In this document: piece by piece, positions 6,329 through 48,914 of the stretch | Numbering within the stretch: position 1 is the stretch's first letter | Layout of the letters: the number at the start of each line of letters is the position of its first letter | Source: an uncultured Patescibacteria group bacterium | Lineage (GTDB): Bacteria > Patescibacteriota > Minisyncoccia > Phycocordibacterales > UBA918 | Direction of reading: 5' to 3' | Assembly: GCA_934699595.1 (NCBI GenBank) | Contig: CAKUWT010000001.1 | Span: 135,839-199,838, forward strand | Length of the DNA: 64,000 bases | Notes under the pieces: model-generated | Database searches by the model: none | What the model was told of the DNA's origin: nothing | The model's input: the letters and a program-made list of their open reading frames with translations, nothing else | Position numbers and translations under genes: made by a program

Positions 6329-8032
6329 CTAAGCTTTATCCGCTAGCAAAATCGCTAGCCGTAGCAGACGTAGAGTTTCATAGTCATACTCACCCTCTGT
6401 CGCTTCATACAAAGGTTTAAGTTTTTCCAGTCCAGTCTCCACTCCGGCGGCTACCTGACGCACCTTCTCCACATCAATTTTTTCAATTCCTAACTCTTCC
6501 ACCAATGGCCACACTTCCACCACATCTAGACTGTCACTCGCCAACAACTGCTCTACATGTCCAACAATGGTAGACATCGCCAAGTTGCGCACTTTAGCCA
6601 CCTCTCTGATGCTCTTCCCCTCTTTAAGTAAATACAAAGTCTGTTCAGTGGTGCTTTCTTTTTTGATACGCTCGGCCGGGGCCGCGCTCTCAATCGGTGT
6701 ATCTTTATCAATAAACTTCCCACCTTTAGAGATCACAAATTGTTTCTGCAAAGCTACCAACTCCTCTTCAGCCATTTCTTGAAAAGTCTCCTCGGCTGAT
6801 TCACTCTCCTCACGGAAACCAGCGTCGCGACGTCGTACTTCTGGATCGACCTGGAGAGCATTTGGATGCATACCCAACACTTTCAACCCCGCTAAAGACC
6901 GCACTCGCGATAGTGCCACATAACCCTGTCCAAACACAAAAGCCTTAGACAAATCAATCTCAGCCGCGTCCAAACTCATTCCTTGACTTTTATGCACCGT
7001 CACTGCCCATGCCAAGCGTAGTGGCACCTGCTCAATACTGGCCATCACCTTACCGTCCTCCATCATTTCCCAACTCTGCGGTTTAATGGTCAGTTTTCTT
7101 TTGTCAGTCGTTTCAATTACTGGCCAGTTGTCGGTTCCGGAAAAACCCACCACTCGTGCCATAGTGCCATTCACATAACCTTCTTCAAAATTATTCTTAG
7201 TGCACATCACCATTGCCCCTTCTTTCAGCACCAGACGTTCAGGTGACAAACATTGCTTGGTCAACGACTCCACCCGCGCCTTAGCTCCACGACCAGACAT
7301 CTTAAAAGTGCGTCCCGTACCAGGTAAGGACTTAAGATGACTTTCATTGACGCTATCTACATCAGCGTTGTGTGTATAAAGACGTGTCGGCTCAATACCT
7401 TCATACTCAATTTCAGTCTGCTCATTCAACAAAGTAAAATGATCCTCCTCAATCTCACCGCTGCGGATGGCGGATAGGAGTGATAGCAGTAACTCATCTT
7501 CTTGTCGGTGTTGCTCACCCAGGTAGCAAATTAGCGGCCGCATCCGCTCCCAGGTATGGCTTTGAAAAGCGTAGCGCTTAATCTCACCGTGACGGGCGAT
7601 TGGCGGTAACTGGAAAAAATCCCCCACCAAAACTACTTGCAGACCGCCAAAAGCCTCGTCACGGTTACGGATAGTCCGACAAATTAGCTCCACCAAATCT
7701 AAACTCTTGCCATCTAACATCGAGATTTCGTCAATCACCAAGACATCAGTTTTTTTAATTCGCTTCATCAGCTTCTCACGGCCAGTAATCGTCTCCAGCT
7801 CACCTCGCGTCAAGTCATTCTTAATACCCAAGCCACTCCAGGAATGAATCGTCATGCCGCCAAGATGTGTAGCTGCGATCCCGGTCGAAGCGGTCACCGC
7901 TACCGTCAAGCCGGTGGCTTCCAGCCAGGCAATGTACTCATTGATCACATAAGTTTTTCCCGCCCCCGGCTCACCCGTTAAGAAGACATTAGCCCCAGTT
8001 TTGAGAATTTCTAAAGCCTGCGATTGAATCAT
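6329..8032 (-). CDS. PIF1/RecD-like ATP-dependent DNA helicase with C-terminal HTH domain
   Basis: Walker A GEPGAGKT, VLVIDEISML and VGDFFQLPP (Pif1/RecD family) are present. The C-terminal region is sigma-70 region 4-like. Confidence 0.8.
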   Translation of the reverse strand: MIQSQALEILKTGANVFLTGEPGAGKTYVINEYIAWLEATGLTVAVTASTGIAATHLGGMTIHSWSGLGIKNDLTRGELETITGREKLMKRIKKTDVLVIDEISMLDGKSLDLVELICRTIRNRDEAFGGLQVVLVGDFFQLPPIARHGEIKRYAFQSHTWERMRPLICYLGEQHRQEDELLLSLLSAIRSGEIEEDHFTLLNEQTEIEYEGIEPTRLYTHNADVDSVNESHLKSLPGTGRTFKMSGRGAKARVESLTKQCLSPERLVLKEGAMVMCTKNNFEEGYVNGTMARVVGFSGTDNWPVIETTDKRKLTIKPQSWEMMEDGKVMASIEQVPLRLAWAVTVHKSQGMSLDAAEIDLSKAFVFGQGYVALSRVRSLAGLKVLGMHPNALQVDPEVRRRDAGFREESESAEETFQEMAEEELVALQKQFVISKGGKFIDKDTPIESAAPAERIKKESTTEQTLYLLKEGKSIREVAKVRNLAMSTIVGHVEQLLASDSLDVVEVWPLVEELGIEKIDVEKVRQVAAGVETGLEKLKPLYEATEGEYDYETLRLLRLAILLADKA

Positions 8033-8130: not shown

Positions 8131-8751
8131 ATGGACAATAAAAACAGCTGGCAGAATAAAGAAATCCTCACCGCTTTGGTGGTAGGAGTAATCGTTGGAG
8201 TCGGCTTTAGTCTCATTTTCAATAATAATGAGTCAAAGAGTAATCTCATTAAGGAGTATTACGAGATTGAAAACGCCGTCTCGGTTAGTCCGCACGACCT
8301 CAAGGTCACCTTGCAGCAAGGTATTATGGACAAAAACTTTATCGTGGTCGACCTCCGCTCAGCCGGTCAGTACGCTGCGGGACACATCCCAGGAGCGATT
8401 AGCGTTCCTGCCAGCTCCGAAGATGGCGAAGATAATCGTGCCCGACTGGTGGAGACTTTCCGAGGCCTGGAAGATATCAAAGGTGATCGCGACATCATTA
8501 CCTACTGTAACAGCGCCGCCTGTATGCTGAGTCGTAAAGTAGGTTTGGCATTAGCCGAAGAAGGTATCTATGTAAAACATCTCAATATCGGCTGGAATGA
8601 ATGGGAGCATTATTGGACTCTTTGGAATGGTAAAGACGGTGTTGACCCAGAGCACTTTATTGCTCGTGGTGAAGAACCGGGCGAAGCTCGCCTGGACGAC
8701 GATGAAAAAGTACTCGCTCCTTGCGCAGCTGATGCGGAGTTTAGCTGTTAA
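8131..8751 (+). CDS. Rhodanese-like domain protein with N-terminal TM helix
   Basis: FIVVDLRSAGQYAAGHIPGAISVP...ITYCNSAACMLS places the rhodanese active-site Cys in a CNSA context. Confidence 0.7.
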   Translation: MDNKNSWQNKEILTALVVGVIVGVGFSLIFNNNESKSNLIKEYYEIENAVSVSPHDLKVTLQQGIMDKNFIVVDLRSAGQYAAGHIPGAISVPASSEDGEDNRARLVETFRGLEDIKGDRDIITYCNSAACMLSRKVGLALAEEGIYVKHLNIGWNEWEHYWTLWNGKDGVDPEHFIARGEEPGEARLDDDEKVLAPCAADAEFSC

Positions 8752-8811: not shown

Positions 8812-8856
8812 ACCTTTGTGAATAAACTATCATCATCTGCTTGACAATAGGTTAAA

Positions 8857-10836
8857 ATGAAAGCAATTGTTCTTATGTCCAGCTCTCCATCAGTGACTTC
8901 TTCAGCCCGCGCCAAGACCGTATCGCCTAAGAAAAAGGTGGGTAAGAAACCAGCTTCTAAAATTACCAAAAAAGCTGTCCCTAAAAAGACTACCAAAAAA
9001 ACTCCCGTTAAAATAGCTACCAAAGCCGCTGTTAAAAAGACTCAAGCTAAAGTGACTAAAAAAACTCTCCGGACCGCCGCCTCATCGACCAGCTCTCGAC
9101 GACGAGTTGCCGCTGCAATCAAGCAAGGTCTAGTGACCGGTATCAAAAGGCATCCTCTTGGACACCTCATGATAGAACGAGAACTACGTAAACTCGGTTT
9201 CCGTGGCAAATTACTAAGTGACGAAGTCTCATTGCACAAATACAGCACCGATGAAAGTATCTTTGCCATCGCTCCTCAGTTGATTTTGGTTCCTAAAGAT
9301 GAACGTGATGTCCGCTTAGCTACTGAAGTAACTGGCTGTCTTGTTAAGCGCTTCCCTTCTATCTCTCTCACTCCTCGTGCCGCTGGCTCTGGTTTAAGTG
9401 GTGGCTCTCTCACTGATTCTATCGTGCTTGACACTATGCATCTTAATACCATTGAACCAGTGCAGGTCAGTAAGAGTGGCATCACTATAACTTGCGAACC
9501 TGGAGCGATGTGGCACGACGTGGAAAAAGCCTTGGCAAAGTACGATGCTTACCTACCCTCCTTCCCCGCCTCTAAAGATCTCTGTACCATTGGCGGCAGC
9601 GTGGCCAACAACGCCGCTGGACCTGACTCACTACGCTATGGTCACACCGCAGATTGGGTAGAAAGTTTAGAGATCATTTTGCATGACGGCAAAAACTATC
9701 TCATCAAACCTCTCACTTACAAAGAATTCACCAAACAAAGTAAACAAAAAAATGAGCTCGGAAGAATCACCCGCGAGATTTGGGAGTTGATTTCCAAAAA
9801 TCAAAAAGTTATCCAGGAAAATACCCCAACTACAACTAAAAACTCTGCCGGTTACGCGCTTTGGTCTGTCCTTAATACTTCCGTGACTAAATTCAAAAAA
9901 GGTGACGGTACTTTTGACCTTACTCGCCTCATCGCTGGCAGCCAGGGCACCGTCGGCATCATCACCAAAATCACCATGCGAGCCTTGCCGATTCCGAGCC
10001 AGACCACACTTATTTCGGTACCTGTTTTTGCTCTAGAAGACGCTCCTCATGTCGTGGAGACCGCCCTTAAATACAACCCAATTAATCTAGAGCTGTTTGA
10101 TGCCGCCTCTTACGAACTAGCTCTGCAAAATCCAGATTTTTTTAAAAATTATTTAAGTGGCTTGGCATATTATCGTACCATGTTTGCAATGTATTCTACT
10201 TATCATGTGCGCTACAAGGGCCGACTGCCTGAACTCTCCCTCTTAATAACTTTGGATAAGGAAACCCTTAAAGACAATTCTCTGCCCGCTATTTTGGTGG
10301 CACTTTCTACCAAAAACTCGCGCGCGCGGGTAGTGCGTGACCGCTACGAGGCTGAGGCATTGTGGCAAGTCAGACGCGCCAGCTACTCTCTTTGTAAACT
10401 TCAGTCCCCCAAACTTCGTCCGGCCGCCTTTTTAGAAGACATGGTAGTACCACCAGAGCATCTGGCAACTTTCTTCATCGGCATCAAAAAGCTGCTACGC
10501 GAGTTTCGAGTACAGGCCACTGTCCATGGCCACGGTGGTAACGGTCATTTTCATTTTTATCCACTGATTGATTTCACCAATCCTACCACCCCCCTCTTAG
10601 TAGAAAAGATGGCAGAAAGATTTTTCAAACTTGCGGTAAAATACGATGGTAATATCTGCGGTGAGCATAACGACGGCATTATCCGCACACCACATTTGAA
10701 CAAAATATTTTCCACTAAAATGATTAAGCTGTTTGAAATTAATGAAAATATTTTTGACCCTGATGACATCTTTAATCCTGGCAAAAAAGTTAATCCACGT
10801 TTTGATATCAAGACCTCAATTAGAAAGGCAAACTAG
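8857..10836 (+). CDS. FAD-linked oxidase (FAD_binding_4 / GlcD-like) with a roughly 100-aa lysine-rich N-terminal tail
   Basis: The FAD-binding region GGSVANNAAGPDSLRYG and a C-terminal FAD-oxidase_C-like HGHGGNGHFHFYP are present. The N-terminus is a KKxxKK/TKK repeat. TTGACA lies 10 nt upstream of the ATG with no SD. Confidence 0.75.
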   Translation: MKAIVLMSSSPSVTSSARAKTVSPKKKVGKKPASKITKKAVPKKTTKKTPVKIATKAAVKKTQAKVTKKTLRTAASSTSSRRRVAAAIKQGLVTGIKRHPLGHLMIERELRKLGFRGKLLSDEVSLHKYSTDESIFAIAPQLILVPKDERDVRLATEVTGCLVKRFPSISLTPRAAGSGLSGGSLTDSIVLDTMHLNTIEPVQVSKSGITITCEPGAMWHDVEKALAKYDAYLPSFPASKDLCTIGGSVANNAAGPDSLRYGHTADWVESLEIILHDGKNYLIKPLTYKEFTKQSKQKNELGRITREIWELISKNQKVIQENTPTTTKNSAGYALWSVLNTSVTKFKKGDGTFDLTRLIAGSQGTVGIITKITMRALPIPSQTTLISVPVFALEDAPHVVETALKYNPINLELFDAASYELALQNPDFFKNYLSGLAYYRTMFAMYSTYHVRYKGRLPELSLLITLDKETLKDNSLPAILVALSTKNSRARVVRDRYEAEALWQVRRASYSLCKLQSPKLRPAAFLEDMVVPPEHLATFFIGIKKLLREFRVQATVHGHGGNGHFHFYPLIDFTNPTTPLLVEKMAERFFKLAVKYDGNICGEHNDGIIRTPHLNKIFSTKMIKLFEINENIFDPDDIFNPGKKVNPRFDIKTSIRKAN

Positions 10837-10930
10837 TCTCATTACTAGGGCCGTATTTGCCCGCACCGCTTTACAATCTGATTTTGATTGCTAAGATAGT
10901 GAAAGGGAACGTTCTTATGGGGTAAAGACA

Positions 10931-11263
10931 ATGGAAATCATCAAGCGCTTTCCCAAAGACCTGCTGGTCAATGTGGACAAAAAGGAGCTTCTTGAGGCTT
11001 TTGACCGCTACGATCAGAGCCACAACGTCCAGGTGATTGGAGAGTTCGTGTACCACCTCCCCGATGCCGAGGAGATTTTGAACAGTCTGGTTTTACCACT
11101 GACCGACCGCTTGCCGAACCTCCCCCGTCTTCATAACTTTGTCGACTGGTGGAACGAGAACCTTGAAGGGAAGCTGAGTGGCGTTCATTACGACTGTCGG
11201 CCTCTGGTAGAAGCGAGCGACTTCCGCTACTACCCGATTGGCAATTACCTGCGGGTCTCGTGA
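10931..11263 (+). CDS. Hypothetical protein (110 aa), GC richer than its neighbours
   Basis: The ORF has a G-rich SD-like stretch and is followed by a very strong terminator. Confidence 0.5.
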   Translation: MEIIKRFPKDLLVNVDKKELLEAFDRYDQSHNVQVIGEFVYHLPDAEEILNSLVLPLTDRLPNLPRLHNFVDWWNENLEGKLSGVHYDCRPLVEASDFRYYPIGNYLRVS

Positions 11264-11283
11264 CAACTTCTCCCAATCCCCAG

Positions 11284-11325
11284 ACGGGCGATTCCTCCGG
11301 AATCGCCCGTTAAATTTTTATTTTT
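11284..11325 (+). terminator. Rho-independent terminator
   Basis: ACGGGCGATTCC-tcc-GGAATCGCCCGT (12-bp perfect stem) followed by taaatttttattttt. Confidence 0.6.
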
Positions 11326-11494
11326 ATCTACCTGCACCACCTGATTCACGGATCCTCAACTTTCTTAAAACGCCCTAATTTTTTAATCATAGTAAAAGTT
11401 AACCCTCAGTTTAATATCAGAACTTTGATTAGACAGAACAACTACCGCACTTCTTTTATAAACTCTAACCCAGTCAAACATCACTTCACTAACA

Positions 11495-11998: not shown

Positions 11999-12216
11999 CA
12001 CTCTCACCTCCTGCACCTTTAAACACTGAGCCCAAAAAGAACTCCGCCTACCCAACATTAAACAGGACAAACCTTAACTAAGCAACCCTACTCAGCCAGT
12101 TTGGCATTCTATACTTAATTTGCTATCATAACTGCACCTTTTTATTGTCTTCCTGACAAAAAAGGCGCGACATAAGTGTGACATCTGCCACAAGTGACAA
12201 TACACTTATGCGATTT

Positions 12217-12288
12217 GGCCCTATCGTCTAACGGCTAGGACACATCCCTCTCACGGATGAAATCCGGGTTCGATTCCCGGTAGGGTCA
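12217..12288 (+). tRNA. tRNA-Glu (anticodon CUC)
   Basis: Cloverleaf by hand. The acceptor is GGCCCTA/TAGGGTC (one G-U). D stem GTCT/GGAC. The anticodon stem CATCC/GGATG carries the loop CT-CTC-AC. The T arm is CCGGG-TTCGATT-CCCGG and the discriminator is A. No CCA is encoded. Confidence 0.8.
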
Positions 12289-12628
12289 CAAAACGAGACT
12301 TCGTCTCGACTTAAGGAGCGCGCCTCTCATCATAGACCAGCCAGAGGACGATATCGACAGTAAGATGATTAAGGATATTGTCGAGCAGGTCTGGAAAGCA
12401 AAGACTAAGCGACAGCTTATCTTTGCCAGCCACAGTGCAAACTTCGTAGTAAACGGTGATGCGGAACTTGTTGTGTGTTGCGATTACGTTAAAGCAGGAG
12501 TTCAGACCAGCGGCATGATCAAGCTTATTGGTGCTATCGACAACGAGAAGATCAAGGAAGAAATCACATTAGTCACCGAGGGAGGCCGTGCGGCGTTCAA
12601 GCTTCGTATGGATAAATACGGATTTTAA
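12289..12628 (+). pseudogene. C-terminal remnant of an ABC/AAA_21-type ATPase (Walker B, D-loop and H-loop only), truncated at the tRNA
   Basis: The frame is open from inside the tRNA 3' end. It reads ...SAPLIIDQPEDDIDSKMIKDIVEQVWKAKTKRQLIFASHSANFVVNGDAELVV..., which has Walker B (LIIDQPE), D-loop and H-loop (ASHS) motifs. There is no Walker A, ABC signature or credible N-terminus. Confidence 0.45.
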
Positions 12629-12630
12629 TT

Positions 12631-12663
12631 AAAAAAAGCCCCGGACACTTGCGTGCCCGGGAC
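12631..12663 (-). terminator. Terminator of the flotillin gene
   Basis: The hairpin CCCGG(A)CAC-ttgc-GTG(C)CCGGG has a poly-A on the plus strand, giving a poly-U on the minus-strand transcript. Confidence 0.45.
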
Positions 12664-12684
12664 GGGAGTCTCATGCGAGACAAG

Positions 12685-14055
12685 TTACTCGGTCTTGGCT
12701 TCCGGTGCGCCATCACCGCTCGGAGCGGCTTCGGTCACCTTGGCCGGAGCCGGGTTGGTCAGCTTGCCGACGATGGCTTGGCCAAGCGGGCTCTGCGCGA
12801 ACGCTTCGACCGCCGAAGCCAGATGGGTACCACCCTTGGAGGTGAAGAGATCCATGACGTTGGTCATGCCTTCGCCGGGCTTGCCCGTGTTGGCGATGAC
12901 CTTGACGTCGGCCTTCTGCAGCGCTTCGGCTTGCTTGCCGCCAACCACCACATAGCCCTTGATGCCTTCGATGGTCATCAGGTACTGTTGGTAGCCGACG
13001 TTGCCGCCGATTTCCTTCGCCAGGACGATCTGCGCCTCGACAGGAGCGAGTTGCATGGCCTTCTCGGCCGCTGCATTCGCCACGCCGACTGCTTCGATAC
13101 CCTGGGCACGCTTGCGCTCGGCTTCGAGCTGGCCATCGGCGATGATCACCGTGGTCTGCTTCTCTTGCTCGGCGGCCACGACCTGCTTGTCCTTCTCGAT
13201 TTCGGCCGTGCGCACTTCTTCGACGCGCTTGACCGCCATGTCGCGCTCCTTGGTCTCCTTCTCCTGCGTCAGAACTTCCTGGCGCGCGAGCTGGTTGGCG
13301 ATGCCGACAGCCTTGTCCTTCTCGGCAGTGCGCTCACCGACGGCCTGTTCGGCCTGCTGGCGCTGGATGTCGACTTCACGCTTGGCGGTGATTTCGGCCA
13401 TCTCGGCGGCCCGCATGTTCTCGGCAACGTCACGCCGGCTCTCCATCTCGATCTGCGAAGTCTTCTTCGCCATGATGTTGGAGATGACCTGGCTGCCACG
13501 ACCGTCACGGATGTCCATCAGTTCCATGGACTTGACCGGCTCGACACCCCACTGCTTGAGCTGTTCGACGACTTCAGCCGTGAAGGCTTCGCCGAACTTG
13601 GAACGCTCGAGCATGATGTTGTCGATCTTGTCGCCGGCGAGGACCTTGCGGACCGCGCCCTGGACGATCTGGTGCAGCTGTGCCTGGAGCTCGTCGATGC
13701 TGGCCACCCGCTGTGCGGCGAGTGCCGTGTCGGCGATGCGGAAGAACGCCGTGACGTCCACCATGAAGGGAACGCGATCGGCGTCGTAGGCTTCGTAGCC
13801 GTCGAGCGAGAGGTCGAAGTTGCTCACCGGCAGCTCGATGACCGTGACCCCGAACTTCGGAATCCAGCTGGGCCAGCGATAGTAGACGTTGCCGCCTTCG
13901 AGGCCGGTGCCGTAGGGCATCGTGGTGCGACCGCGCTGGACAATGTGCACCATGTTGGTGCTCACGACCTTTCGGTAGAGGATGGCGAGAATGATGGCAA
14001 AGACCACCAGTACGCTGATCAGGACGGACCCGATCAGAACAGGGATGTTGAACAT
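12685..14055 (-). CDS. Flotillin / SPFH (band 7) family protein with very high G+C
   Basis: There is an N-terminal TM helix, then the SPFH domain and a long EA-rich coiled-coil typical of flotillins (YqiK/FloT-like). I chose the start MFNIP at 14055 because GGAGAAG lies 6 nt upstream. Codons are strongly GC3-biased, unlike the rest of the window. Confidence 0.8.
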   Translation of the reverse strand: MFNIPVLIGSVLISVLVVFAIILAILYRKVVSTNMVHIVQRGRTTMPYGTGLEGGNVYYRWPSWIPKFGVTVIELPVSNFDLSLDGYEAYDADRVPFMVDVTAFFRIADTALAAQRVASIDELQAQLHQIVQGAVRKVLAGDKIDNIMLERSKFGEAFTAEVVEQLKQWGVEPVKSMELMDIRDGRGSQVISNIMAKKTSQIEMESRRDVAENMRAAEMAEITAKREVDIQRQQAEQAVGERTAEKDKAVGIANQLARQEVLTQEKETKERDMAVKRVEEVRTAEIEKDKQVVAAEQEKQTTVIIADGQLEAERKRAQGIEAVGVANAAAEKAMQLAPVEAQIVLAKEIGGNVGYQQYLMTIEGIKGYVVVGGKQAEALQKADVKVIANTGKPGEGMTNVMDLFTSKGGTHLASAVEAFAQSPLGQAIVGKLTNPAPAKVTEAAPSGDGAPEAKTE

Positions 14056-14738
14056 GTGCTTCTCCTGTGGAATTGGAGGGTATTCTCCACTTTCCACATT
14101 AACATACTATGACGTATCTGTCAACCCTACGTAATGGTTCAATACCTTCGCAACACCATAAGCTATAGGTTGCTCTATCTTGCCTACAGAGTAGCTAATA
14201 CAGGCAACGGGGCTTATACAGAAACGCCACCGAAGTAGCTCACACGAAACAACACCGAGCAGGCCACGCGAGCGGATGCGAGCGTGCCTATGCGAGGTGG
14301 TTGCACAGTGTGAGCGGACTCTCGATATACCACACGCGCTGTATACGGGAAGCGCGCCTCGCTTGACGCGAGGACGGAAAAAAGCGTAGTGGTAGGCTCT
14401 CAAGTGAGATGGAGACTATAACGAAGCTTTTTGGAGGACGAAGCGGCGACCCCAAACCAAAGAAATATCCTTTCAATTTTTTGTCGGCTCCTCCCCAGAC
14501 CCCTCCACCGAAAAAATGATTGTAAGGAAATTTCTTTGTTTTGGGTGCCGAGTGCAGCGAGGCAGCGAGGCGCGCCAAGCTCCAATGCGTACGCGGAAGT
14601 ATAAAGCCACCACGCGCTCGGCGCGTTGCAGGTTCACCGCTTCGCGGTGTAGTGAGTTAGAGCGCGATGCGCTAATACATCACAAAGTAACAAAACTGTA
14701 ATTTTACAATATAAGTCGACCAACTATACAGCATCAAA

Positions 14739-14769
14739 TTAACTACATAGTCTGGACCTATGTAGTTAA
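14739..14769. repeat. 12-bp perfect inverted repeat TTAACTACATAG-N7-CTATGTAGTTAA
   Basis: Seen directly in the sequence. It lies in AT-rich DNA between the GC-rich island and the deacetylase gene. It may be an operator or a recombination site. Confidence 0.4.
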
Positions 14770-14896
14770 AAGGAAACAATGCTCCTATAGGTTCATTTTA
14801 TGTAGAAGAATCTAGTTATAAATAAAACTGCTCAATAATAAACTTCCTTACACCCCACTCATAGACTCCTCTTCTCTCTAGCGTTACAATAAAATT

Positions 14897-16429
14897 ATGA
14901 GAAAAACTTTACTTATTTTAGGAGTGGTGTTTTTGTTGTTGGCGATCGGTGCTGATGTTTGGTTTAGTCGCGAAAACAAATTTTTTGCTATAGACAATAA
15001 CCAGATCGGTCTAGAACCTGACGAATATATTGTCCCATCAAAATACAAAGATATTAAAGTTAAAACCATCAATGAGCAATCGGATGATGAGCAACATCGC
15101 TACACCCTTCACGCCTCTTGGCCAGTCACTGATAATGACACCATCAATCAGACAGTTGAAAACTTCAGCAACAACTTTATTGAAGAATATCGGACTCGGT
15201 CAGTTGAGATTGAAGCCTCTCGCCTAGAATATATGGCTGAAACCGGTGAGGACGGTGTCACCTTCCATGCTGACTACAACCTATCTTTTGACGTGGCATT
15301 TGCGAGCGATGATTACCTAGCTTTTGCTTTTACACGTTACCGCAATACTGGGAATACTGGCACTCAAGAAGCTGCCACGATGATTTTTAACCGACAGTCA
15401 GGTGAAGAGGTACCAGTGGCCAATCTTTTCGTTAGCAATGATTATTTAAATAGATTATCGGATTTAGTTAGGGAAGATTTATATGCTCGGGTCAATAAGG
15501 AAGCACCAGAATCGGAGTTTGAATCTAGAGAGGAAAAAGAGAGATGGATAAACAATATGCAGAAAATGATTGACAACGGCACCGAACCAACAGCAGAAAA
15601 CTTTAAAAGCTTGGTGATTAATGACGAGGGAAAAATGGCTGTCTATCTTGACCGCTACCAGGCCGCACCAGGATATTGGGGTGTTTTAGAAATTGATCTT
15701 CCTTTAGAAAGCTTCATCGAATATTTGACCCCGCCAGTGCTAGAGATTTTTAATTTAGAAAATAAGCCCAGTGAACAGGCTGCTCCCGAGGAGCAGCCTG
15801 TTGCTAATGACCGTACTTCTAATGACAACGTAAACTGTACGATAGATAAGTGTATTGCCCTTACTTTTGATGACGGACCTTCAGTATACACTGAAGGTCT
15901 TTTGAAAACTTTGGTTAATAAGGGAGTGAAGGCGACTTTTTTTATGCTTGGCAGCCATGCCAAGGTGCAACAACAAACCGTAATCGATGTCAGTAAAGCC
16001 GGTATGGAAATCGGCAACCACACTTGGGATCATAAACAACTGACTAAGCTTGACGAAGCTGGTGTTGACAGCGAAATCAACGACACCCGTTCCCTGCTAG
16101 AAAAGATTACTGGTAAGTCCGTGGCTCAACTACGTCCTCCTTATGGTTCTTTCAATGACACTGTTAAGCAAATTGCTAACGGTCCAATTATCCTCTGGAA
16201 TGTTGATACTGAGGATTGGAAACATCGTGACAGCGCTTATATCAAAAATTACGTGGCAACTCATGCCAAACCAGGTGCTATTATTCTCATGCACGACATC
16301 CACCCTACCACTGTGGAGGCCGTTCCCACCATGGTGGACGAGCTAAAACAGGCTGGCTATACCCTCGTCACCGTTAGCGAATTATTTGGGGGACATTTAG
16401 TGACGGGAAAGATTTATTCTGGTAGATAA
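14897..16429 (+). CDS. PdaC-like polysaccharide/peptidoglycan deacetylase (N-terminal DUF3298/DUF4163-like region plus NodB/CE4 domain)
   Basis: A TM/signal N-terminus is present. The CE4 motifs are TFDDGP, HTWDH, LRPPYG and ILMHDIH. Confidence 0.75.
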   Translation: MRKTLLILGVVFLLLAIGADVWFSRENKFFAIDNNQIGLEPDEYIVPSKYKDIKVKTINEQSDDEQHRYTLHASWPVTDNDTINQTVENFSNNFIEEYRTRSVEIEASRLEYMAETGEDGVTFHADYNLSFDVAFASDDYLAFAFTRYRNTGNTGTQEAATMIFNRQSGEEVPVANLFVSNDYLNRLSDLVREDLYARVNKEAPESEFESREEKERWINNMQKMIDNGTEPTAENFKSLVINDEGKMAVYLDRYQAAPGYWGVLEIDLPLESFIEYLTPPVLEIFNLENKPSEQAAPEEQPVANDRTSNDNVNCTIDKCIALTFDDGPSVYTEGLLKTLVNKGVKATFFMLGSHAKVQQQTVIDVSKAGMEIGNHTWDHKQLTKLDEAGVDSEINDTRSLLEKITGKSVAQLRPPYGSFNDTVKQIANGPIILWNVDTEDWKHRDSAYIKNYVATHAKPGAIILMHDIHPTTVEAVPTMVDELKQAGYTLVTVSELFGGHLVTGKIYSGR

Positions 16430-22515: not shown

Positions 22516-25104
22516 ATGTCTAAAAAAGAAGCCGCTGCTCGGCTCAAAATTAACCATCTCCTAGAAGAAGCGGGTTGGCGACTTTTTGACACTGACACCG
22601 CAAAAGCTAACGTGAGCGTGGAAATCTACCTCCAGCCCGGACAAACTGTTGCAGGCGATACTCTTGGTAACGACTTTCAAGATACTAAAAGTGGCTTTGC
22701 CGATTATGTGCTTTTAGACTATAACCAAAAGCCGCTGGCGGTTCTCGAAGCTAAGCGCGAAAGTATTCCTCCACTCAGTGCCAAAGAACAAGCCCGTAAC
22801 TATGCCAACTCACTCCACGTTCGTTATGTCATTCTCAGTAACGGAAACTCCCATTATCTCTGGGATATGCTTGAAGGTAATCCTGAACCAATCTCCCGCT
22901 TCCCCTCCTTGGATTCACTACAAAGTAAGAAAAACTTTATCCCCAATCCAGACAGACTGGTTCACGAAAATGTAGACAAACACTACATCGCCTCATCACA
23001 ATTGCCGGGGTTCCAAACTCATCCAGAATATCTCGCTGGTGGCGACAGGCAGAAAGAATACCTGTTTGCAAACAAGCTCAAAATTATGCGCCACTACCAA
23101 GTCGGAGCAATCAAATCCATCCAGCAGGCTGCTAAAGATGGTAAGAGGCGCTTTCTATTAGAGATGGCTACCGGCACCGGCAAAACCCTGACCTGCGCTG
23201 CCATCATCAAACTCTTTCTTCGCACCGAAAACGCACGCCGGATTCTTTTCTTAGTTGACCGACTTGAACTAGAAGACCAAGCGGACAAAGCCTTCCGCCA
23301 AACGCTTGGACAGGACTATACTATCTTTACGTACAAACAACATCGTGATGATTGGGAAATGGCTGAAGTGGTCGTGACTACTGTCCAAAGCCTTCAGGTC
23401 AACGATCGTTATAAGGAAATATTCTCACCAACCGACTTCGACCTCATCATCAGCGATGAGGCCCACCGCTCTATTAACGGTAACGCCAGGGCAGTTTTTG
23501 AATATTTCATCGGTTACCGTATCGGTCTCACCGCGACTCCCAAAGACTATCTAAAAGGTATCGGTGAAGAAGATAACAAAACCCAGAAAGAGTTTGAGCG
23601 TCGTCAATTACTCGATACCTATAAAACTTTTGGCTGTGAGAGTGGCGAGCCCACCTTTCGCTATAGCCTGACAGATGGCGTCAATGACCCCGACGGCCCG
23701 TTCTTAGTAAACCCCACCATTGTTGACGCTCGCACCGAGATCACCACCAAATTACTAAGCACAGAGGGCTACGCCATTCACAAAACTATCGACGACAGCG
23801 AAGTAGACACAGTCTACGGGGCACGAGATTTTGAGAGACGTTTTTTCAATGAACGTACCAATGAAGTCTTGGCTGAAACTTTCCTTAATGAAGCCGATAC
23901 TGACCCTATTAGTGGCGAAGTTGGTAAGTCTATCATCTTTGCCGTTTCGCAAGACCATGCTGAAAAAATAGTAGACCGTCTCAATCAGCTAGCCGTCGAA
24001 CGTTGGCCTGGTAAATACCAATCAGACTTTGCCATCCAGATTACCAGCCGTGTGACCGATGCTCAGAACTTTACTGTCCGTTTCAGTGAAAACGATCTTC
24101 TGGGACACACTCGTTGGCTAGAAAATTATGAAAGTTCCCGTGCTCGGGTCGCTGTCACCGTGGGCATGATGACGACTGGTTACGACTGTGCCGACTTGCA
24201 AAATGTCGTCTTTATGCGACCAGTTTTTAGTCCGAGCGACTTCATTCAGATGAAAGGTCGCGGTACCCGTCTACATACTTTTAAATACATCAATTATCAA
24301 AATGATGAGGAAGTTATCACCACTCCGAAAACTGGCTTCAAGTTAATAGATTTTTTCGCCGTTTGTGAATTCTTCAACGAAAAATACGATTACCAAGCCA
24401 AGCTGGCTGTCCCTCGCCTCCCCGCCTCTGGAAGCAAAGGCTCAACCGATGAATTCACCGCTGCAACCGGTGGTGACGACATAAATTCAACACAAAAACA
24501 AACTGGTCCAGTCGAGCTGAATGAAGATGACTCTTTGGCTTCCAATACCTCCATTCTCGTCGGTGCCGACGGCATGCGTATTGACCAAGAAATGTTTCGC
24601 AGTTTTAAACAAGAGGCCTCAAACGACCCCACTCTCATTGCTCTTGATAAAGAAAACCCAGACGCTGCCCGTGAGTATCTTAAAAATAATCTTCTCAATA
24701 AAGCCTCTCACTTCATGACTTTAGAGAAGGTCCGTCGTTTTTTCAAACTTGACCGTCGACTGTCTCTCGATGAGCTTCTGGATATCATCATGGATCGCCT
24801 CGATACTCCCAAATCAAAGACTGCCGTTATTCAAGACCAGTTTGACGACTTCATCAAAAGCAATACCTTGTCCGATATCTTTGCAGAGAACCCTGCACTC
24901 TTCCAGCTTGCCTACCGTCTTTTTGATGCCTATATCTCCTCTCAAGCAGTCCGCGATGCCATTGACACTGGTACGTATGGTAATCTAGAAAGTACAGGAC
25001 AAATCACATTGTCTGAATTTGGCGAGCTATCTCGGTCTAATCTCGCTACCCCCATTATCAGTTATATCAATGACTACATCAGTATCGACAGACTCACTGT
25101 CTAG
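22516..25104 (+). CDS. hsdR: Type I restriction endonuclease subunit R (HsdR-like)
   Basis: The N-terminal PD-(D/E)xK nuclease reads FADYVLLD...LAVLEAKRE. The SF2 helicase shows Walker A MATGTGKT and DEAH ISDEAHRS. It is directly followed by hsdMS after 20 nt. Confidence 0.8.
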   Translation: MSKKEAAARLKINHLLEEAGWRLFDTDTAKANVSVEIYLQPGQTVAGDTLGNDFQDTKSGFADYVLLDYNQKPLAVLEAKRESIPPLSAKEQARNYANSLHVRYVILSNGNSHYLWDMLEGNPEPISRFPSLDSLQSKKNFIPNPDRLVHENVDKHYIASSQLPGFQTHPEYLAGGDRQKEYLFANKLKIMRHYQVGAIKSIQQAAKDGKRRFLLEMATGTGKTLTCAAIIKLFLRTENARRILFLVDRLELEDQADKAFRQTLGQDYTIFTYKQHRDDWEMAEVVVTTVQSLQVNDRYKEIFSPTDFDLIISDEAHRSINGNARAVFEYFIGYRIGLTATPKDYLKGIGEEDNKTQKEFERRQLLDTYKTFGCESGEPTFRYSLTDGVNDPDGPFLVNPTIVDARTEITTKLLSTEGYAIHKTIDDSEVDTVYGARDFERRFFNERTNEVLAETFLNEADTDPISGEVGKSIIFAVSQDHAEKIVDRLNQLAVERWPGKYQSDFAIQITSRVTDAQNFTVRFSENDLLGHTRWLENYESSRARVAVTVGMMTTGYDCADLQNVVFMRPVFSPSDFIQMKGRGTRLHTFKYINYQNDEEVITTPKTGFKLIDFFAVCEFFNEKYDYQAKLAVPRLPASGSKGSTDEFTAATGGDDINSTQKQTGPVELNEDDSLASNTSILVGADGMRIDQEMFRSFKQEASNDPTLIALDKENPDAAREYLKNNLLNKASHFMTLEKVRRFFKLDRRLSLDELLDIIMDRLDTPKSKTAVIQDQFDDFIKSNTLSDIFAENPALFQLAYRLFDAYISSQAVRDAIDTGTYGNLESTGQITLSEFGELSRSNLATPIISYINDYISIDRLTV

Positions 25105-25123
25105 TCACATTTTCTAAAACAAC

Positions 25124-27532
25124 ATGTCATACGAAGAATTCCGCCGCCGCATTGATACCGCTCGTCAGATCCTGGTCGGCGCCGTACCATCACCAGCTGG
25201 GCAGATCGACCAGATCACCTATGCGCTGATGTACAAATTTATGAACGACATAGACGACAAGTCTGCCTCGCTCGGTGGCAAGCGGAGCTATTTCACTGGC
25301 GAATACGCTCAGTACAACTGGCACAACCTAATGTCGGCCAGTCTCGGTGCACAGGAGCGTCTTGAATTATATCGTCAAGCCATCCAGACCATGACTAAAA
25401 ACCCTGCCTTGCCGCCGATGTTTCGTGAGATTTATCAAAATGCCTTTTTGCCGTTTAATTCTGCCAATGTCTTGACGCTATTCCTCAAAGAGATCGACAA
25501 ATTCAACCACGGCGAAAGTGATGACATCGGCGACGCCTACGAGTACCTGTTATCAATCACTGGCGCTCAGGGCGACGTCGGTCAGTTCCGTACACCGCGT
25601 CACATCATCAAATTTATCGTCGAGGTCGTAAATCCGAGAAAAACCGATACCGTACTCGATCCAGCCTGTGGCACCGCTGGCTTTTTGATCTCCGCTTATA
25701 GTCATGTCCGCGCCCAGCACGACGGTGTCGACGCCGAAGGCAAGCCTAACGACGAAAAGCGCCTATCTGCCGACGAACTCGACAAAATCCACCACAACTA
25801 CCGTGGCTTCGACATCGACCCTACTATGGTGCGCACTGCGAAGGTCAATCTATATCTGCATGGTTTTAAAACTCCAGAAATCATCAACCACGACTCCTTA
25901 AGTAGTGAAGATTACTGGAACGAACGTTACGACGTCATCCTGGCTAATCCGCCATTTATGACACCAAAAGGCGGCATCCAGCCGCACAAAAAGTTTAGTA
26001 TTTCTGCCAACCGCGCCGAGGTGCTGTTTGTCGACTATATCGCCAGCCACCTCAAGCCAACCGGCCGCGCCGGTATCGTCGTACCAGAGGGTATTATCTT
26101 TCAGAGCGGCAAAGCGTACAAAGAACTGCGAAAAAACCTAGTCGAAAATTACTTGTATGCTGTCGTCAGCCTACCTGCTGGCGTATTCCAACCTTACAGT
26201 GGTGTCAAAACCAGCGTGTTATTACTTGACAAAGAACTCGCTAAGCAGCGCGACAAGATACTATTCATAAAAATTGAAAAAGACGGCTTTAGTCTTGGCG
26301 CTCAACGAGCAAAGTTGTGTGAAGATAGCGGCAATCACCCAAATCTTTGCCCTCAACACAGCGACCTACCACATGCACTTCATGATTTAGCTGCGTTCAA
26401 GGCCGGCCAAGAATTTGCAAGTGAGCTTGCGCACAGTGTGCTACGTAGCAAAATTGCGGAAAGTGGTGACTACAACTTGAGTGGCGATCGATACAAAATC
26501 GTTACAAATAGTAATCTTGACGTCGAATTTATTGAATTGGGTGAAGTAGCCGAGGTGTATCAGCCAAAGACAATTACCTCTAAGGAGGTAAAAGACGAAG
26601 GAGAGTATAAGGTCTTTGGAGCGAATGGCGTAATCGGATACTATAGTCAGTACAATCACGAGCATGCAGAAGTAGCTGTGACTTGCCGGGGGGCAACCTG
26701 CGGAACAGTGAACTATACTGAACCGAAGAGCTGGATTACTGGAAACGCTATGGTTATTTCACCAAAGAATAGCAATAATCTAAACAAGAGATTCTTATAC
26801 TATATTTTGCAGAACGACTCAATCAAAAACGTCATTAGTGGCTCTGCCCAGCCGCAAATTACTCGAAGTTCACTAGCTCCATTCAAAATCCCACTCCCTC
26901 CAATCGAAATCCAGCGCGAAATCGTCGCCGAACTCGACGGCTACCAAAAAATCATCGACGCCGCCCAAACTATCGTCCAAACCTACAAACCCACCATCAA
27001 GATAAATCCGGAATGGGACATGAGGCTGATTGGGGAAATTGCCGAAGTACGTAAAGGAAGCGCAGTTACGAAGGCGCAGATTAATCCAGGTGGCTCGGTA
27101 CCTGTTGTTGCAGGCGGACAAAAGCCTGCCTATTACCACAATGTATCCAACCGTGAGCCAGACGTAATCACTATCAGCGCGTCGGGAGCATACGCAGGCT
27201 TTGTGAATTACTGGACGGAACCCATCTTCGCTTCAGACTGCTCCACGATTCAAGCAATAGACGACAAAAGAGCTCTGAACAGGTACATTTTTGAGTCACT
27301 CAAGAGCCTTCAGGGCGATATATACAAACTCCAGATGGGTGGAGGACAACCTCACGTCTACCCAAAGGATATTGTAAAAATAAGCATCCCACTCCCACCA
27401 ATCGAAATCCAACGCGAAATCGTCGCCGAACTTGAAGCCGAACAAAAACTCATCGATGCCAACAAAAAACTCATCGAAATCTACCAACAAAAAATCAAAT
27501 CCAAAATCGCCGAGGTCTGGGGAGAATCATAA
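25124..27532 (+). CDS. Fused type I methyltransferase and specificity subunit (HsdM-HsdS single polypeptide)
   Basis: Residues about 1-460 form the HsdM_N helical domain plus the N6-adenine MTase (LDPACGTAGFL and NPPF motifs). Residues about 465-802 form two short target-recognition domains, each ending in the HsdS conserved repeat IPLPPIEIQREIVAEL. Confidence 0.8.
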   Translation: MSYEEFRRRIDTARQILVGAVPSPAGQIDQITYALMYKFMNDIDDKSASLGGKRSYFTGEYAQYNWHNLMSASLGAQERLELYRQAIQTMTKNPALPPMFREIYQNAFLPFNSANVLTLFLKEIDKFNHGESDDIGDAYEYLLSITGAQGDVGQFRTPRHIIKFIVEVVNPRKTDTVLDPACGTAGFLISAYSHVRAQHDGVDAEGKPNDEKRLSADELDKIHHNYRGFDIDPTMVRTAKVNLYLHGFKTPEIINHDSLSSEDYWNERYDVILANPPFMTPKGGIQPHKKFSISANRAEVLFVDYIASHLKPTGRAGIVVPEGIIFQSGKAYKELRKNLVENYLYAVVSLPAGVFQPYSGVKTSVLLLDKELAKQRDKILFIKIEKDGFSLGAQRAKLCEDSGNHPNLCPQHSDLPHALHDLAAFKAGQEFASELAHSVLRSKIAESGDYNLSGDRYKIVTNSNLDVEFIELGEVAEVYQPKTITSKEVKDEGEYKVFGANGVIGYYSQYNHEHAEVAVTCRGATCGTVNYTEPKSWITGNAMVISPKNSNNLNKRFLYYILQNDSIKNVISGSAQPQITRSSLAPFKIPLPPIEIQREIVAELDGYQKIIDAAQTIVQTYKPTIKINPEWDMRLIGEIAEVRKGSAVTKAQINPGGSVPVVAGGQKPAYYHNVSNREPDVITISASGAYAGFVNYWTEPIFASDCSTIQAIDDKRALNRYIFESLKSLQGDIYKLQMGGGQPHVYPKDIVKISIPLPPIEIQREIVAELEAEQKLIDANKKLIEIYQQKIKSKIAEVWGES
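26885..26940 (+). repeat. HsdS conserved-region direct repeat, copy 1
   Basis: About 56 bp, roughly 90% identical to 27384..27440 (ATCCCACTCCCTCCAATCGAAATCCAGCGCGAAATCGTCGCCGAACTCGACGG). Confidence 0.6.
27384..27440 (+). repeat. HsdS conserved-region direct repeat, copy 2
   Basis: Direct repeat of 26885..26940 inside the same ORF. Confidence 0.6.
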
Positions 27533-48386: not shown

Positions 48387-48914
48387 TTAACGCAACTTGT
48401 GAATCTTACCAGCAGCACTGACCTGGACTAAGGACGACGGGGCGACACTAGCTGGCACCGTGCCAGCGTCCCAATACACATCTACCTGATCACCAAAATA
48501 TGTCTTAGCCTCCGCGATGGTACGGGCTGGTGACTTGCCCTGCAGATTAGCACTCGGCGCTACTAAGGGACCCGTGTAGCGAAGCAAGGCTTGAAGTTCT
48601 CGATTTTGCGGCACTCGGTAGGCAACAGTGCCATCGTGGTGCTGCAACCAGGCGGGAGCGTGCGGAGAAAATACTACCACGGTTGTAGGTGTCTTGGCGG
48701 CGGCGGAATAGGTCTCCACCAACTCTTGACCATCAAAAGCCTGACTGGCGTCAGCAAGTAAGACAATCAGGGGCTTGCTACGATCGCGACCCTTGACGGT
48801 AAAAATCCGCTCCACCGTCTTTTGTAAATCGGCCCGCCCCAACAAGCCGTAAACCGTGTCGGTACGCACTACCGCTATTCCTCCCTCCTTCAGCACCTTC
48901 ATACTGTCGTTCAT
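48387..48914 (-). CDS. tsaC: L-threonylcarbamoyladenylate synthase (TsaC/YrdC family)
   Basis: VRTDTVYGL, KGRDRSKPL and APSAN motifs. Confidence 0.8.
   Translation of the reverse strand: MNDSMKVLKEGGIAVVRTDTVYGLLGRADLQKTVERIFTVKGRDRSKPLIVLLADASQAFDGQELVETYSAAAKTPTTVVVFSPHAPAWLQHHDGTVAYRVPQNRELQALLRYTGPLVAPSANLQGKSPARTIAEAKTYFGDQVDVYWDAGTVPASVAPSSLVQVSAAGKIHKLR

Follow-up and report, generated by a model that had tools for sequence, protein, structure and literature searches.

Within a 64,000-nucleotide stretch of a Patescibacteria genome (the window; contig CAKUWT010000001.1), the interval between the tRNA-Glu(CUC) gene and a polysaccharide deacetylase gene contains a foreign flotillin gene with the composition of a high-GC lineage, as judged from its GC content at third codon positions (GC3), its codon usage, its phylogeny, and the fact that other low-GC genomes carry it at unrelated loci. 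We read the interval as a variable stretch of a CPR genome, made up of the stump of a dead TrlF/Ppl gene, an imported flotillin cassette, and a structured noncoding element, with the cassette deriving from a high-GC lineage sister to the flotillins of Rhodobacterales and now occupying at least six sites; we assign this reading a probability of about 78%. It builds on what was observed of the foreignness of the gene, the boundaries of the cassette, its distribution over multiple loci, its phylogenetic position, and the selection acting on it.

Composition and identity of the flotillin gene

The flotillin ORF (positions 12685 to 14055, minus strand) has a GC content of 62.4% and a GC3 of 0.829, compared with a GC3 of 0.461 ± 0.052 (maximum, 0.587) for 42 further ORFs of 150 amino acids or more in the window (z = 7.0). 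Background windows of 1371 nt from the 64 kb reach a ceiling of 50.9% GC, and the tetranucleotide deviation of the flotillin region, 0.70 versus a median of 0.25, is the highest of any 1.5 kb in the 64 kb. Relative synonymous codon usage (RSCU) correlated at r = 0.05 with that of host genes and at r = 0.87 with that of the genes of L010 (61% GC) and of the Paracoccaceae locus L014. Composition and codon usage thus deviate from the host genome in the manner of a xenolog. The first-pass annotation, made from the sequence, had already described a strong compositional outlier with a G/C preference at third positions and proposed horizontal transfer, both of which were borne out. Its estimate of two-thirds or more G+C was too high given the measured 62%, and the jump in GC that it placed directly 3' of the tRNA is preceded by 333 nt of host-like GC, with the step at about position 12640.

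The gene encodes a flotillin-like SPFH protein of 456 amino acids. Residues 32 to 213 matched Pfam Band_7 (PF01145) with 56.1 bits against a cut-off of 23.6, which places the protein in the SPFH/Band 7 superfamily. The AF2 model (pLDDT above 80 in the SPFH core and 67.7 overall) consists of a helix at residues 4 to 26 (TM), strands and helices at residues 35 to 184 (SPFH alpha/beta), and further helices at residues 190 to 279, 290 to 350, and 353 to 381. Residues 190 to 350 are 33% A+E and 58% A/E/K/Q/R, so that the protein has the anchor, SPFH domain, and long Glu/Ala-rich coiled coil of the flotillin-type architecture. In Foldseek, the human flotillin complex ranked first as a full-length match (9bq2_A; 443 columns, E = 3.4e-12), ahead of stomatin, prohibitin, HflK/C, and QmcA. 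Sequence matches in the PDB were the PH stomatin and QmcA, and JGI annotates homologs as "flotillin." The flotillin/SPFH identity given to the protein at first pass therefore stands, with Band_7 above its cut-off and the best fold match to a flotillin complex.

The protein resembles the flotillin branch of the SPFH proteins (eukaryotic flotillin-1/2; bacterial K07192/COG2268 "YqiK") in its anchor, SPFH domain, A/E-rich helices, and C-terminal helical part, but it is just 13 to 25% identical to solved SPFH proteins, and its gene has no NfeD or partner gene next to it. With 15.6 bits (E = 0.006) on NF058507, the NCBIfam model for the FloT equivalog, whose cut-off is 700 bits, it is not an orthologue of FloT (YuaG). 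By analogy with 9bq2, HflK/C, and QmcA, the protein would, like other flotillins, form an oligomeric SPFH scaffold or cage, anchored in the membrane, that organizes microdomains there. A known defense role is unsupported, as neither PHROGs nor PADLOC assigned the flotillin to a family. The gene is intact and under purifying selection, with dN/dS values of 0.08 to 0.22.

The transferred unit and its surroundings

The transferred unit spans positions 12622 to 14129 (minus strand), which is the extent of 86 to 90% nucleotide similarity to copies in other genomes. Boundaries in individual blastn comparisons were 12622 to 14129 (against L023/L027/L028), 12630 to 14107 (L026), 12628 to 14093 (L007), and 12632 to 14088 (L003). 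These 1.5 kb form a self-contained, single-gene flotillin expression cassette with a promoter-like site, 5'UTR, Shine-Dalgarno sequence (SD), coding sequence (CDS), and terminator. A terminator scan identified the intrinsic terminator at 12638 to 12663 (minus strand) as a stem of GTCCCGGGCAC/GTGTCCGGGGC followed by T7; a small hairpin lies ahead of it at 12668 to 12681, and both are kept in the alignment with other cassettes. The 5' region (14056 to 14129, minus strand; 43% GC) contains the SD AGGAG at 14062 to 14066 on the minus strand, a conserved hairpin, GGAGAAUACCCUCC, at 14075 to 14088, and a promoter-like site read from the sequence, with a −35 box TTGACA (14119 to 14124), a 17-nt spacer, and a −10 box TAATGT (14096 to 14101). 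The −35 box, hairpin, and SD are conserved in L023, L026, L007, and L003; as the −10 box is weak and absent from the consensus-scan list, the promoter is a putative one. The gene does carry its own SD and terminator, as noted at first pass, but these are not in local style: other genomes preserve both along with the gene, so they travelled with it. The promoter/5'UTR and the terminator of the cassette are absent from the copies in L010 and Rhodobacterales.

A sharp GC step at each end of the insert is what a mis-join of a high-GC piece into a CPR contig during assembly or binning would produce, yet such a chimera is hardly credible here. Independent assemblies agree on the junctions: two from ENA, made from different samples and with different assemblers, match each other at 100% identity over the 21.4 kb surrounding the gene (in a 203-kb and a 400-kb contig), and the locus was also recorded from NCBI and Logan. 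Moreover, the insert lies inside contigs of 200 to 450 kb, the same cassette occurs inside low-GC contigs of 0.96 Mb and 1.03 Mb, and its ends consist of AT-rich regulatory DNA rather than arbitrary break points.

On its left, the variable region is bordered by an intact tRNA-Glu(CUC) gene at 12217 to 12289 (plus strand), the sole tRNA in the 64-kb window, on which ARAGORN and Rfam (60.7 bits) agree with each other and with the first-pass call. It is followed at 12293 to 12628 (plus strand) by the 3' remnant of a gene for a TrlF-family AAA-like ATPase of the Ppl anti-phage type, which matched NCBIfam NF045780 (E = 9e-42; model positions about 840 to 944 of 944), the Ppl model NF042955 (7.8e-24), and PADLOC Ppl (7.6e-23). 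The stump corresponds to the last ~105 amino acids of a protein of ~944 amino acids; about 840 N-terminal codons are missing, and its 143.8 bits stay below the equivalog cut-off of 350 for full-length TrlF/Ppl proteins (~880 to 944 amino acids), while a Walker-B-like motif, LIIDQPEDDID, is retained. The break lies at most ~16 nt from the tRNA 3' end, and in translation stop codons occur just upstream, within the tRNA. Judged by its sequence, the segment is a pseudogene fragment of an anti-phage ATPase, with a host-like GC content of 47.6%.

To the right of the cassette, and outside it, lies a structured, ORF-poor noncoding stretch (14130 to 14720; 51.6% GC) with fold z-scores of −4.7 and −3.7 and a long hairpin formed by an inverted repeat (14451 to 14482/14514 to 14545). 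Its positions 14190 to 14407 resemble intergenic DNA at two Nomurabacteria loci, and 14423 to 14720 resemble DNA downstream of the flotillin gene in L026. Rfam, run on the full 64 kb at the gathering threshold and on 12000 to 15000 in E-value mode, returned the tRNA alone and nothing at 14130 to 14720. A scan of viral contigs with the pattern of the conserved core gave 0 matches, and nhmmer found no further copies of the element over the collected loci. A decayed protein gene in this stretch is unsupported, as the small ORFs of 14107 to 14701 had no significant Pfam match (one chance-level match; E = 0.18). The part from 14230 to 14700, first taken for a GC-rich, ORF-poor continuation of the foreign gene, is indeed ORF-poor, but at 54% GC it lies outside the transferred segment. 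The right border of the variable region is the polysaccharide deacetylase gene (14897 to 16429, plus strand; DUF3298 and Polysacc_deac_1 in Pfam), a gene of host composition with a GC3 of 0.407.

The first-pass annotation had explained the whole of 12290 to 14700 as a decayed integrase island at the 3' end of tRNA-Glu, derived from an Actinomycetota host of a Saccharibacteria-type symbiont. The foreign, GC-rich flotillin gene fits this explanation, and the truncation of the TrlF/Ppl gene so close to the tRNA 3' end is the type of scar expected at a tRNA-side variable region. However, the ORFs between 12290 and 14896 are the TrlF stump, the flotillin gene, and four small ORFs, none of them an integrase or recombinase, and no repeat family within 12150 to 15000 involves 12240 to 12289 (seed, 8; minimum, 11 nt), so that neither the integrase nor the attR repeat of a tRNA-targeted island was found. 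The block is heterogeneous in GC, with 47.6% in 12290 to 12621, 62.4% in the flotillin gene, and 51.6% in 14130 to 14720. Only 12622 to 14129 is common to other genomes, where it does not sit beside tRNA-Glu. Among cassette loci, 3 of ~10 have a tRNA within 1.5 kb against a rough chance expectation of ~14% (assuming ~45 tRNAs per 1-Mb genome), which we did not take as significant for tRNA proximity as a general trait of the cassette. In a comparison aimed at an empty site, with the deacetylase gene immediately after the tRNA, no deacetylase homolog in other genomes exceeded 55% identity, and the neighborhoods of the nearest ones were nonsyntenic; the contigs that share the locus all represent the same strain.

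The proposed host and donor fared no better. The best named relatives of the lysyl-tRNA synthetase (LysRS) are from Paceibacteria, Parcubacteria, Pacebacteria, and Kaiserbacteria (70 to 75% identity), by which the host is Paceibacteria/Parcubacteria-like rather than of the Saccharibacteria type. Actinomycetota were absent from the 120 best protein matches and from the 16 GTDB-species loci, and the sister clade of the flotillin belongs to Rhodobacterales. The island explanation is thus largely refuted for donor and host, and as a whole we consider it quite improbable. The locus does resemble tRNA-associated islands in its position at a tRNA 3' end, its heterogeneous composition, and the truncated defense gene at the tRNA, and in this respect the description of a "decayed" tRNA-side region was right in spirit. 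It differs from them in lacking an integrase and attL/attR, and in that the foreign unit is a 1.5-kb single gene that is tRNA-unlinked elsewhere. With its truncated end at the tRNA, the defense gene would be compatible with an earlier event here that was mediated by an integrase.

Distribution and origin of the cassette

Low-GC genomes, those of Kaiserbacteria and Pacebacteria among them, carry the cassette with 86 to 90% identity at five further, unrelated loci. The closest proteins are 88 to 93% identical and are found in different gene contexts; tblastx among the flanks of the six contexts gave no shared match, and homologous flanks were confined to L023/27/28/30, which represent one locus. 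In L003, L006, L007, L019, L021, L023, and L026, the flotillin gene has 58 to 62% GC compared with 37 to 48% in the flanks, while its GC matches that of the flanks in Rhodobacterales (59 to 66%) and in L010. Closest matches within the same lineage at similar GC had been named at first pass as a result that would speak against transfer: the closest relatives do belong to CPR lineages related to the host, but in those genomes, too, the gene stands out by its GC.

In neighbor-joining (NJ) trees of 24 sequences (numpy p-distance bootstrap; rooted by two 50%-identical outgroups), the clade of the window cassette, clade A, had 100% bootstrap support, and its grouping with Rhodobacterales flotillins, which have native GC, had 92%. 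Within clade A, copies from Kaiserbacteria and Pacebacteria stand together with those of other low-GC contigs and of a 61%-GC MAG, at nucleotide identities of 86 to 95%. The gene tree is hence incongruent with host relationships and the sites are nonsyntenic, as in a xenolog. The deeper transfers may have run either from CPR bacteria to Rhodobacterales or in the opposite direction. High-GC members of clade A are limited to a MAG titled "Bdellovibrionales" and a 71%-GC contig (L010 and L031), which lack the cassette flanks or are fragmentary.

Third-position synonymous singletons on the branches of low-GC hosts comprised 56 GC>AT and 7 AT>GC changes, in a parsimony test that is biased toward common-to-rare changes. 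The clade consensus has a GC3 of 0.849, above that of every extant copy. The window copy has the highest GC3 and 5 such singletons of its own (4 GC>AT and 1 GC>GC). In L010, the singletons were 12:0 in favor of GC>AT, and L010 may therefore also be a recipient.

These data bear on whether the gene could be native, that is, vertically inherited with its high GC kept by selection or GC-biased gene conversion. The family is widespread in CPR bacteria (Yanofskybacteria, Nomurabacteria, Kaiserbacteria, and Pacebacteria), and the purifying selection on the gene would agree with such a history. Nevertheless, we regard it as highly improbable, since terminal-branch substitutions run strongly from GC to AT, the gene contexts are unrelated, and 86 to 95% nucleotide identity is found between genomes with unshared flanks and GC contents differing by up to 11 points. 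In addition, other CPR homologs are host-like in GC (47% versus 43% in the flanks for Yanofskybacteria L038; 40% versus 32% for L039), so that a high GC content is no inherent feature of the family, and the idea of an intrinsically GC-rich gene was rejected on this ground.

A different account of the same distribution is that the copies were acquired independently and directly from a diverse high-GC proteobacterial reservoir, with no spread between CPR genomes. All copies have kept a GC3 of 0.75 to 0.83 despite pairwise dS values of 0.23 to 0.75, the high-GC carriers L010 and L031 fall inside the clade, and the window copy combines the highest GC3 with few singletons of its own, all of which speak for this account. 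It is at odds with the conservation of the 43%-GC promoter/5'UTR and the terminator in the window, L003, L007, L023, and L026 and their absence from L010 and Rhodobacterales, and a search of 185,579 GTDB species and the JGI scan turned up no high-GC genome with the cassette flanks. A survey has further reported that most horizontal transfer in Patescibacteria is intra-phylum (PMC12455944). On balance, we judge purely independent acquisition to be unlikely.

The flotillin resembles the single-gene transfers of that survey in that a single gene was transferred and its closest relatives are in other Patescibacteria; the divergence between copies, ~5 to 14% at the nucleotide level, lies inside the surveyed range of 3.9 to 34.5%. 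It differs in its GC3, which at ~0.8 has stayed alien to all six hosts, and in having its own conserved regulatory flanks. The terms flotillin and SPFH have 0 occurrences in the survey (PMC12455944).

Routes of transfer and implications

On the reading of an imported cassette from a sister lineage of the Rhodobacterales flotillins, the CDS would have been shaped in a genome of roughly 60 to 66% GC, with an ancestral GC3 of ~0.85, and then installed at a minimum of six unrelated chromosomal sites in different low-GC genomes. There, the copies would be slowly decaying toward AT under purifying selection, with the window copy the least decayed. Because the cassette comes with neither a mobility gene nor an att repeat, entry probably occurred by DNA uptake and illegitimate or short-homology recombination rather than through an integrase. 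At least some of the spread may have taken place between CPR genomes, since the AT-rich noncoding flanks are common only to the copies in low-GC hosts.

Nothing points to delivery of this copy by a plasmid or a phage: tblastn gave no match to PLSDB plasmids, a peptide-pattern scan of IMG/VR no close relative, and PHROG no match for the flotillin. The family as such is carried by mobile genomes, as jumbo phages (Xanthomonas BUDD and X1, Brevundimonas vB_BpoS, Ralstonia RP13, and Vibrio Cody) have homologs, annotated as "flotillin" or "SPFH domain-containing protein," that are 50 to 54% identical over ~90% of the query. These are far more distant than the bacterial relatives (69 to 93%).

A more specific scenario, which we offer tentatively and hold to be possible rather than probable, is that the gene was captured once from a high-GC bacterium with a Rhodobacterales-sister flotillin, which may be a physical host or neighbor of the episymbionts. 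The cassette would now circulate among distant Patescibacteria without mobility genes, presumably via DNA uptake, and tend to land in variable or defense-rich regions near a recurrent structured GC-rich element (14130 to 14720), perhaps a recombination hotspot or an ncRNA not yet described. Were this true, the cassette would be a tracer of contacts between CPR bacteria and their hosts and a sign of an imported membrane scaffold that is repeatedly selected in ultra-small cells.

The phenomenon itself is ordinary: a gene of a known protein family was acquired horizontally, which is well documented in this case, and the way it has spread over CPR genomes is of moderate interest. An appealing but wrong story, that of transfer from an actinobacterial host to a Saccharibacteria symbiont, is corrected as well. 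Little is known of the hosts of Paceibacteria-type CPR bacteria and of the sources of their genes, and a recent, un-ameliorated import traceable to a proteobacterial-type lineage is a concrete lead on their DNA-exchange partners. A membrane-microdomain scaffold emerges as a repeatedly retained acquisition, given an intact gene that occurs in six contexts and is subject to purifying selection.

Composition and product of the flotillin gene

The flotillin gene at 12685-14055 (minus strand), which encodes a 456-aa protein bearing a Band_7/SPFH domain, has a GC content of 62.4% in a window that averages 45.7%. Its GC3 of 0.829 compares with 0.461±0.052 (maximum, 0.587) for the 42 other window open reading frames (ORFs) of at least 150 aa (z=7.0), background windows of 1371 nt never exceeded 50.9% GC, and the two most tetranucleotide-deviant 1.5-kb windows of the 64 kb start at 12501 and 13001. 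The anomaly is therefore real and far beyond chance. The relative synonymous codon usage of the gene is essentially uncorrelated with that of its own host's genes (r=0.05), compared with r=0.87 for the genes of both L010, a 61%-GC metagenome-assembled genome (MAG) titled 'Bdellovibrionales', and the Paracoccaceae locus L014.

The first-pass annotation had correctly recognized the flotillin/SPFH product, its outlier composition and the neighboring tRNA-Glu(CUC) (12217-12289, plus strand), the sole tRNA in the window, but it misjudged the details. The gene, described as two-thirds or more G+C, measures 62%; the jump placed directly 3' of the tRNA lies instead at ~12640, with a second step at ~14060 and only 47.6% GC in 12290-12621; and the supposedly GC-rich stretch 14230-14700 reaches just 54%. 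By GC content, the ORF ranking second in the window lies at 48387-48914 (minus strand), with 54.9% GC and a GC3 of 0.574. We rejected a plus-strand ORF at 12649-14112 (487 aa) as a stop-free artefact of GC-rich DNA antisense to the flotillin; for the Pacebacteria contig L003, public annotation lists the equivalent artefact (9941-11398, minus strand) as a gene of 485 aa.

An assembly artefact could also be rejected. Two ENA assemblies from different samples and assemblers (contigs of 203 kb and 400 kb) agree at 100% identity over the flotillin protein and the surrounding 21.4 kb, and the same sequence is recorded in NCBI (454-kb contig) and Logan.

An AlphaFold2 model based on an alignment of 33 sequences (mean pLDDT, 67.7; SPFH core, >80) assigned residues 4-26 to a transmembrane helix, 35-184 to the SPFH domain and 190-381 to long helices. 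Foldseek matched the model best to the human flotillin complex (9bq2_A; E=3.4e-12, 443 columns), followed by stomatin, prohibitin, HflK/C and QmcA; by analogy, the protein would form a membrane-attached oligomeric scaffold. With 15.6 bits where the cut-off is 700 bits, it does not qualify as a FloT equivalog, and it matched none of the PADLOC defence models. Among jumbo phages, those infecting Xanthomonas, Brevundimonas, Ralstonia and Vibrio carry full-length homologs that cover ~90% of the protein's length with 50-54% identity (ON758385.1, OQ427096.1, ON529851-60, LC554890.1, MT460515.1). We found no close relative in IMG/VR and no relative at all in PLSDB.

Limits of the cassette and the tRNA side

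We delimited the foreign unit by blastn of the window against the loci with the closest flotillin homologs. Similarity was confined to 12622-14129 for the Kaiserbacteria genome RIFCSPLOWO2_01_FULL_45_25 (L023/L027/L028, L027 being a 0.96-Mb contig; 87.8% nucleotide identity), 12630-14107 for L026 (1.03-Mb contig; 89.7%), 12628-14093 for L007 (85.7%) and 12632-14088 for L003 (GCA_018061135; 86.7%). End alignments showed that a -35 TTGACA box whose position is fixed, the hairpin GGAGAAUACCCUCC in the 5'UTR and an SD AGGAG are kept 5' of the gene, and that a small hairpin followed by an intrinsic terminator (12638-12663) is kept 3' of the stop codon; the 5' noncoding part has 43% GC. The transferred unit thus amounts to a complete single-gene expression cassette of ~1.5 kb. 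L010 has the coding sequence alone in common with it. In L006 (4605-5978 of Logan SRR28641017_5406), the core is 94.8% identical to window 12741-14008, yet its opening ~16 codons, its closing ~19 codons and the DNA on either side are unrelated; the gene is a mosaic, which implies internal recombination.

On the tRNA side, the frame at 12293-12628 (plus strand) matches positions 840-944 of 944, the last ~105, of the NCBIfam TrlF-family AAA-like ATPase (E=9e-42) and the Ppl anti-phage protein (7.8e-24 in NCBIfam, 7.6e-23 in PADLOC). Read upstream, this frame meets stop codons within the tRNA, and it is therefore a 3' stump, the remainder of a defence gene of ~2.8 kb. The break lies at most ~16 nt from the tRNA-Glu 3' end, and the GC of the stump is host-like. 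It is the sole feature favoring an old rearrangement on the tRNA side: we detected no integrase-like ORF in 12290-14896, no repeat of the tRNA-Glu 3' end in 12150-15000 and no mobility gene or att site beside the cassette in any locus compared. The tRNA-targeted island proposed earlier is unproven.

Less than 10 kb from the flotillin region lie a type I restriction-modification system (HsdR plus an 802-aa HsdM-HsdS fusion) and a gene for a Pif1-family helicase (22516-27532, plus strand; 6329-8032, minus strand), making this a neighborhood rich in defence and DNA-handling genes. A 52%-identical homolog of the deacetylase bordering the region on the right (14897-16429, plus strand) directly adjoins a Cas12a(Cpf1)-Cas4-Cas1-Cas2 locus on two other contigs (L035 9885-16227, L036 7848-14190).

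Host, donor and apparent decay of the copies

The first-pass annotation had speculated that a Saccharibacteria-type symbiont could have received the gene from a high-GC actinobacterial host. Among named sequences, the LysRS of the window is closest to those of Candidatus Paceibacteria, Parcubacteria, Pacebacteria and Kaiserbacteria (70-75% identity); the host is a CPR bacterium of the Paceibacteria type rather than one of the Saccharibacteria. No Actinomycetota occurred among the best 120 flotillin matches or the 16 GTDB-species loci, and the proposed Actinobacteria-to-Saccharibacteria transfer is unsupported. In a neighbor-joining tree (24 sequences, 455 columns, 300 bootstraps), the window, L003, L006, L007, L023, L026 and L010 formed clade A (100% support), sister to a Rhodobacterales clade (100%; pairing, 92%). 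A clade of Nomurabacteria and a 'Saccharibacteria' MAG branched next, and native-GC CPR sequences fell outside these clades. The donor lineage was high in GC, with a flotillin closest to those of Rhodobacterales.

The gene is GC-rich relative to its flanks in the window (62% versus 45%), L003 (60% versus 48%), L006 (61% versus 37%), L007 (61% versus 42%), L023 (60% versus 44%), L026 (61% versus 38%) and the Nomurabacteria loci L019 (58% versus 40.5%) and L021 (59% versus 43%). Flotillin and flank GC agree (59-66%) in nine genomes of Rhodobacterales, Paracoccaceae, Frigidibacter and Cypionkella; they also agree in L010, where the gene (8852-10189) begins 127 nt downstream of tRNA-Gln (8653-8725). 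Because the flanks of the clade A members have no mutual tblastx match at 1e-10, the copies represent six independent low-GC contexts plus L010, with L023/27/28/30 counted once as one locus. A fragment in L031 (WBZP01031771.1, 3403-3894), 90% identical to the window gene, has 60% GC between flanks of 70.8%, so even where genomic GC is very high the gene seems foreign. High GC as a property of the family was rejected, since distant CPR homologs are compositionally native (gene versus flanks, 47% versus 43% in Yanofskybacteria L038 and 40% versus 32% in L039).

Clade A pairs differ by dS 0.23-0.75, with dN/dS of 0.08-0.22. Synonymous third-position singletons on low-GC-host branches comprise 56 GC>AT against 7 AT>GC changes (p=1e-10 versus stationarity), a ratio that fits the 83% expected under host bias; the known bias of such parsimony counts makes this test supportive, not decisive. 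The clade A consensus GC3 of 0.849 is higher than that of any extant copy, and ~0.85 is the value of genomes with 64-66% GC. All copies thus seem to be losing GC relative to an ancestor whose GC3 was ~0.85; the window copy carries the fewest private changes and has the highest GC3. In L010, the 12 GC>AT and 0 AT>GC singletons suggest that it may be a recipient, not the donor.

Spread of the cassette and the adjacent structured element

With the cassette, a CPR genome has truly acquired a member of a known protein family by horizontal transfer, and the limits of the acquired DNA are well defined. The earlier view was right that the gene is foreign but mistaken as to donor and host. The cassette sits in variable surroundings, beside the dead Ppl/TrlF gene in the window and, in L007, beside genes for methylase and Mrr; the L039 flotillin lies beside KAP-NTPase, ResIII and methylase genes. 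The simplest reading of its entry would be DNA uptake followed by illegitimate or short-homology recombination, after which selection would retain a ready-to-express scaffold gene. We favor a single capture with subsequent CPR-to-CPR spread, because the AT-rich cassette flanks are common only to copies in low-GC hosts and because, in a published survey (PMC12455944), ~83% of the individual transfers in Patescibacteria reportedly stayed within the phylum; independent captures from an unsampled reservoir would be the less favored course.

Outside the cassette, 14130-14720 is a structured, moderately GC-rich noncoding element with no family-matching ORF and no Rfam match. The earlier description of 14230-14700 as ORF-poor holds, but not as a continuation of the foreign segment. 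The element folds far better than shuffled sequence (z=-4.7 and -3.7). Its minus strand from 14720 to 14423 is collinear with L026 7539-7900 (plus strand), downstream of the L026 flotillin; common to both are a nearly identical core (GAGCGCGTnGTGGCTTTATAC) and, at 14451-14545, a long hairpin whose stems carry compensatory changes and whose 31-nt C-rich loop is inverted between the two. The minus strand from 14407 to 14190 resembles intergenic DNA ~1.5 kb upstream of two Nomurabacteria flotillins (L019 8360-8599, L021 8309-8549). In three further loci of low GC, parts of the element lie <2 kb from a GC-rich flotillin gene, and it may represent an undescribed noncoding RNA or a recombination hotspot. 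What deserves note is the spread of an un-ameliorated cassette over multiple genomes, together with the structured element beside it.
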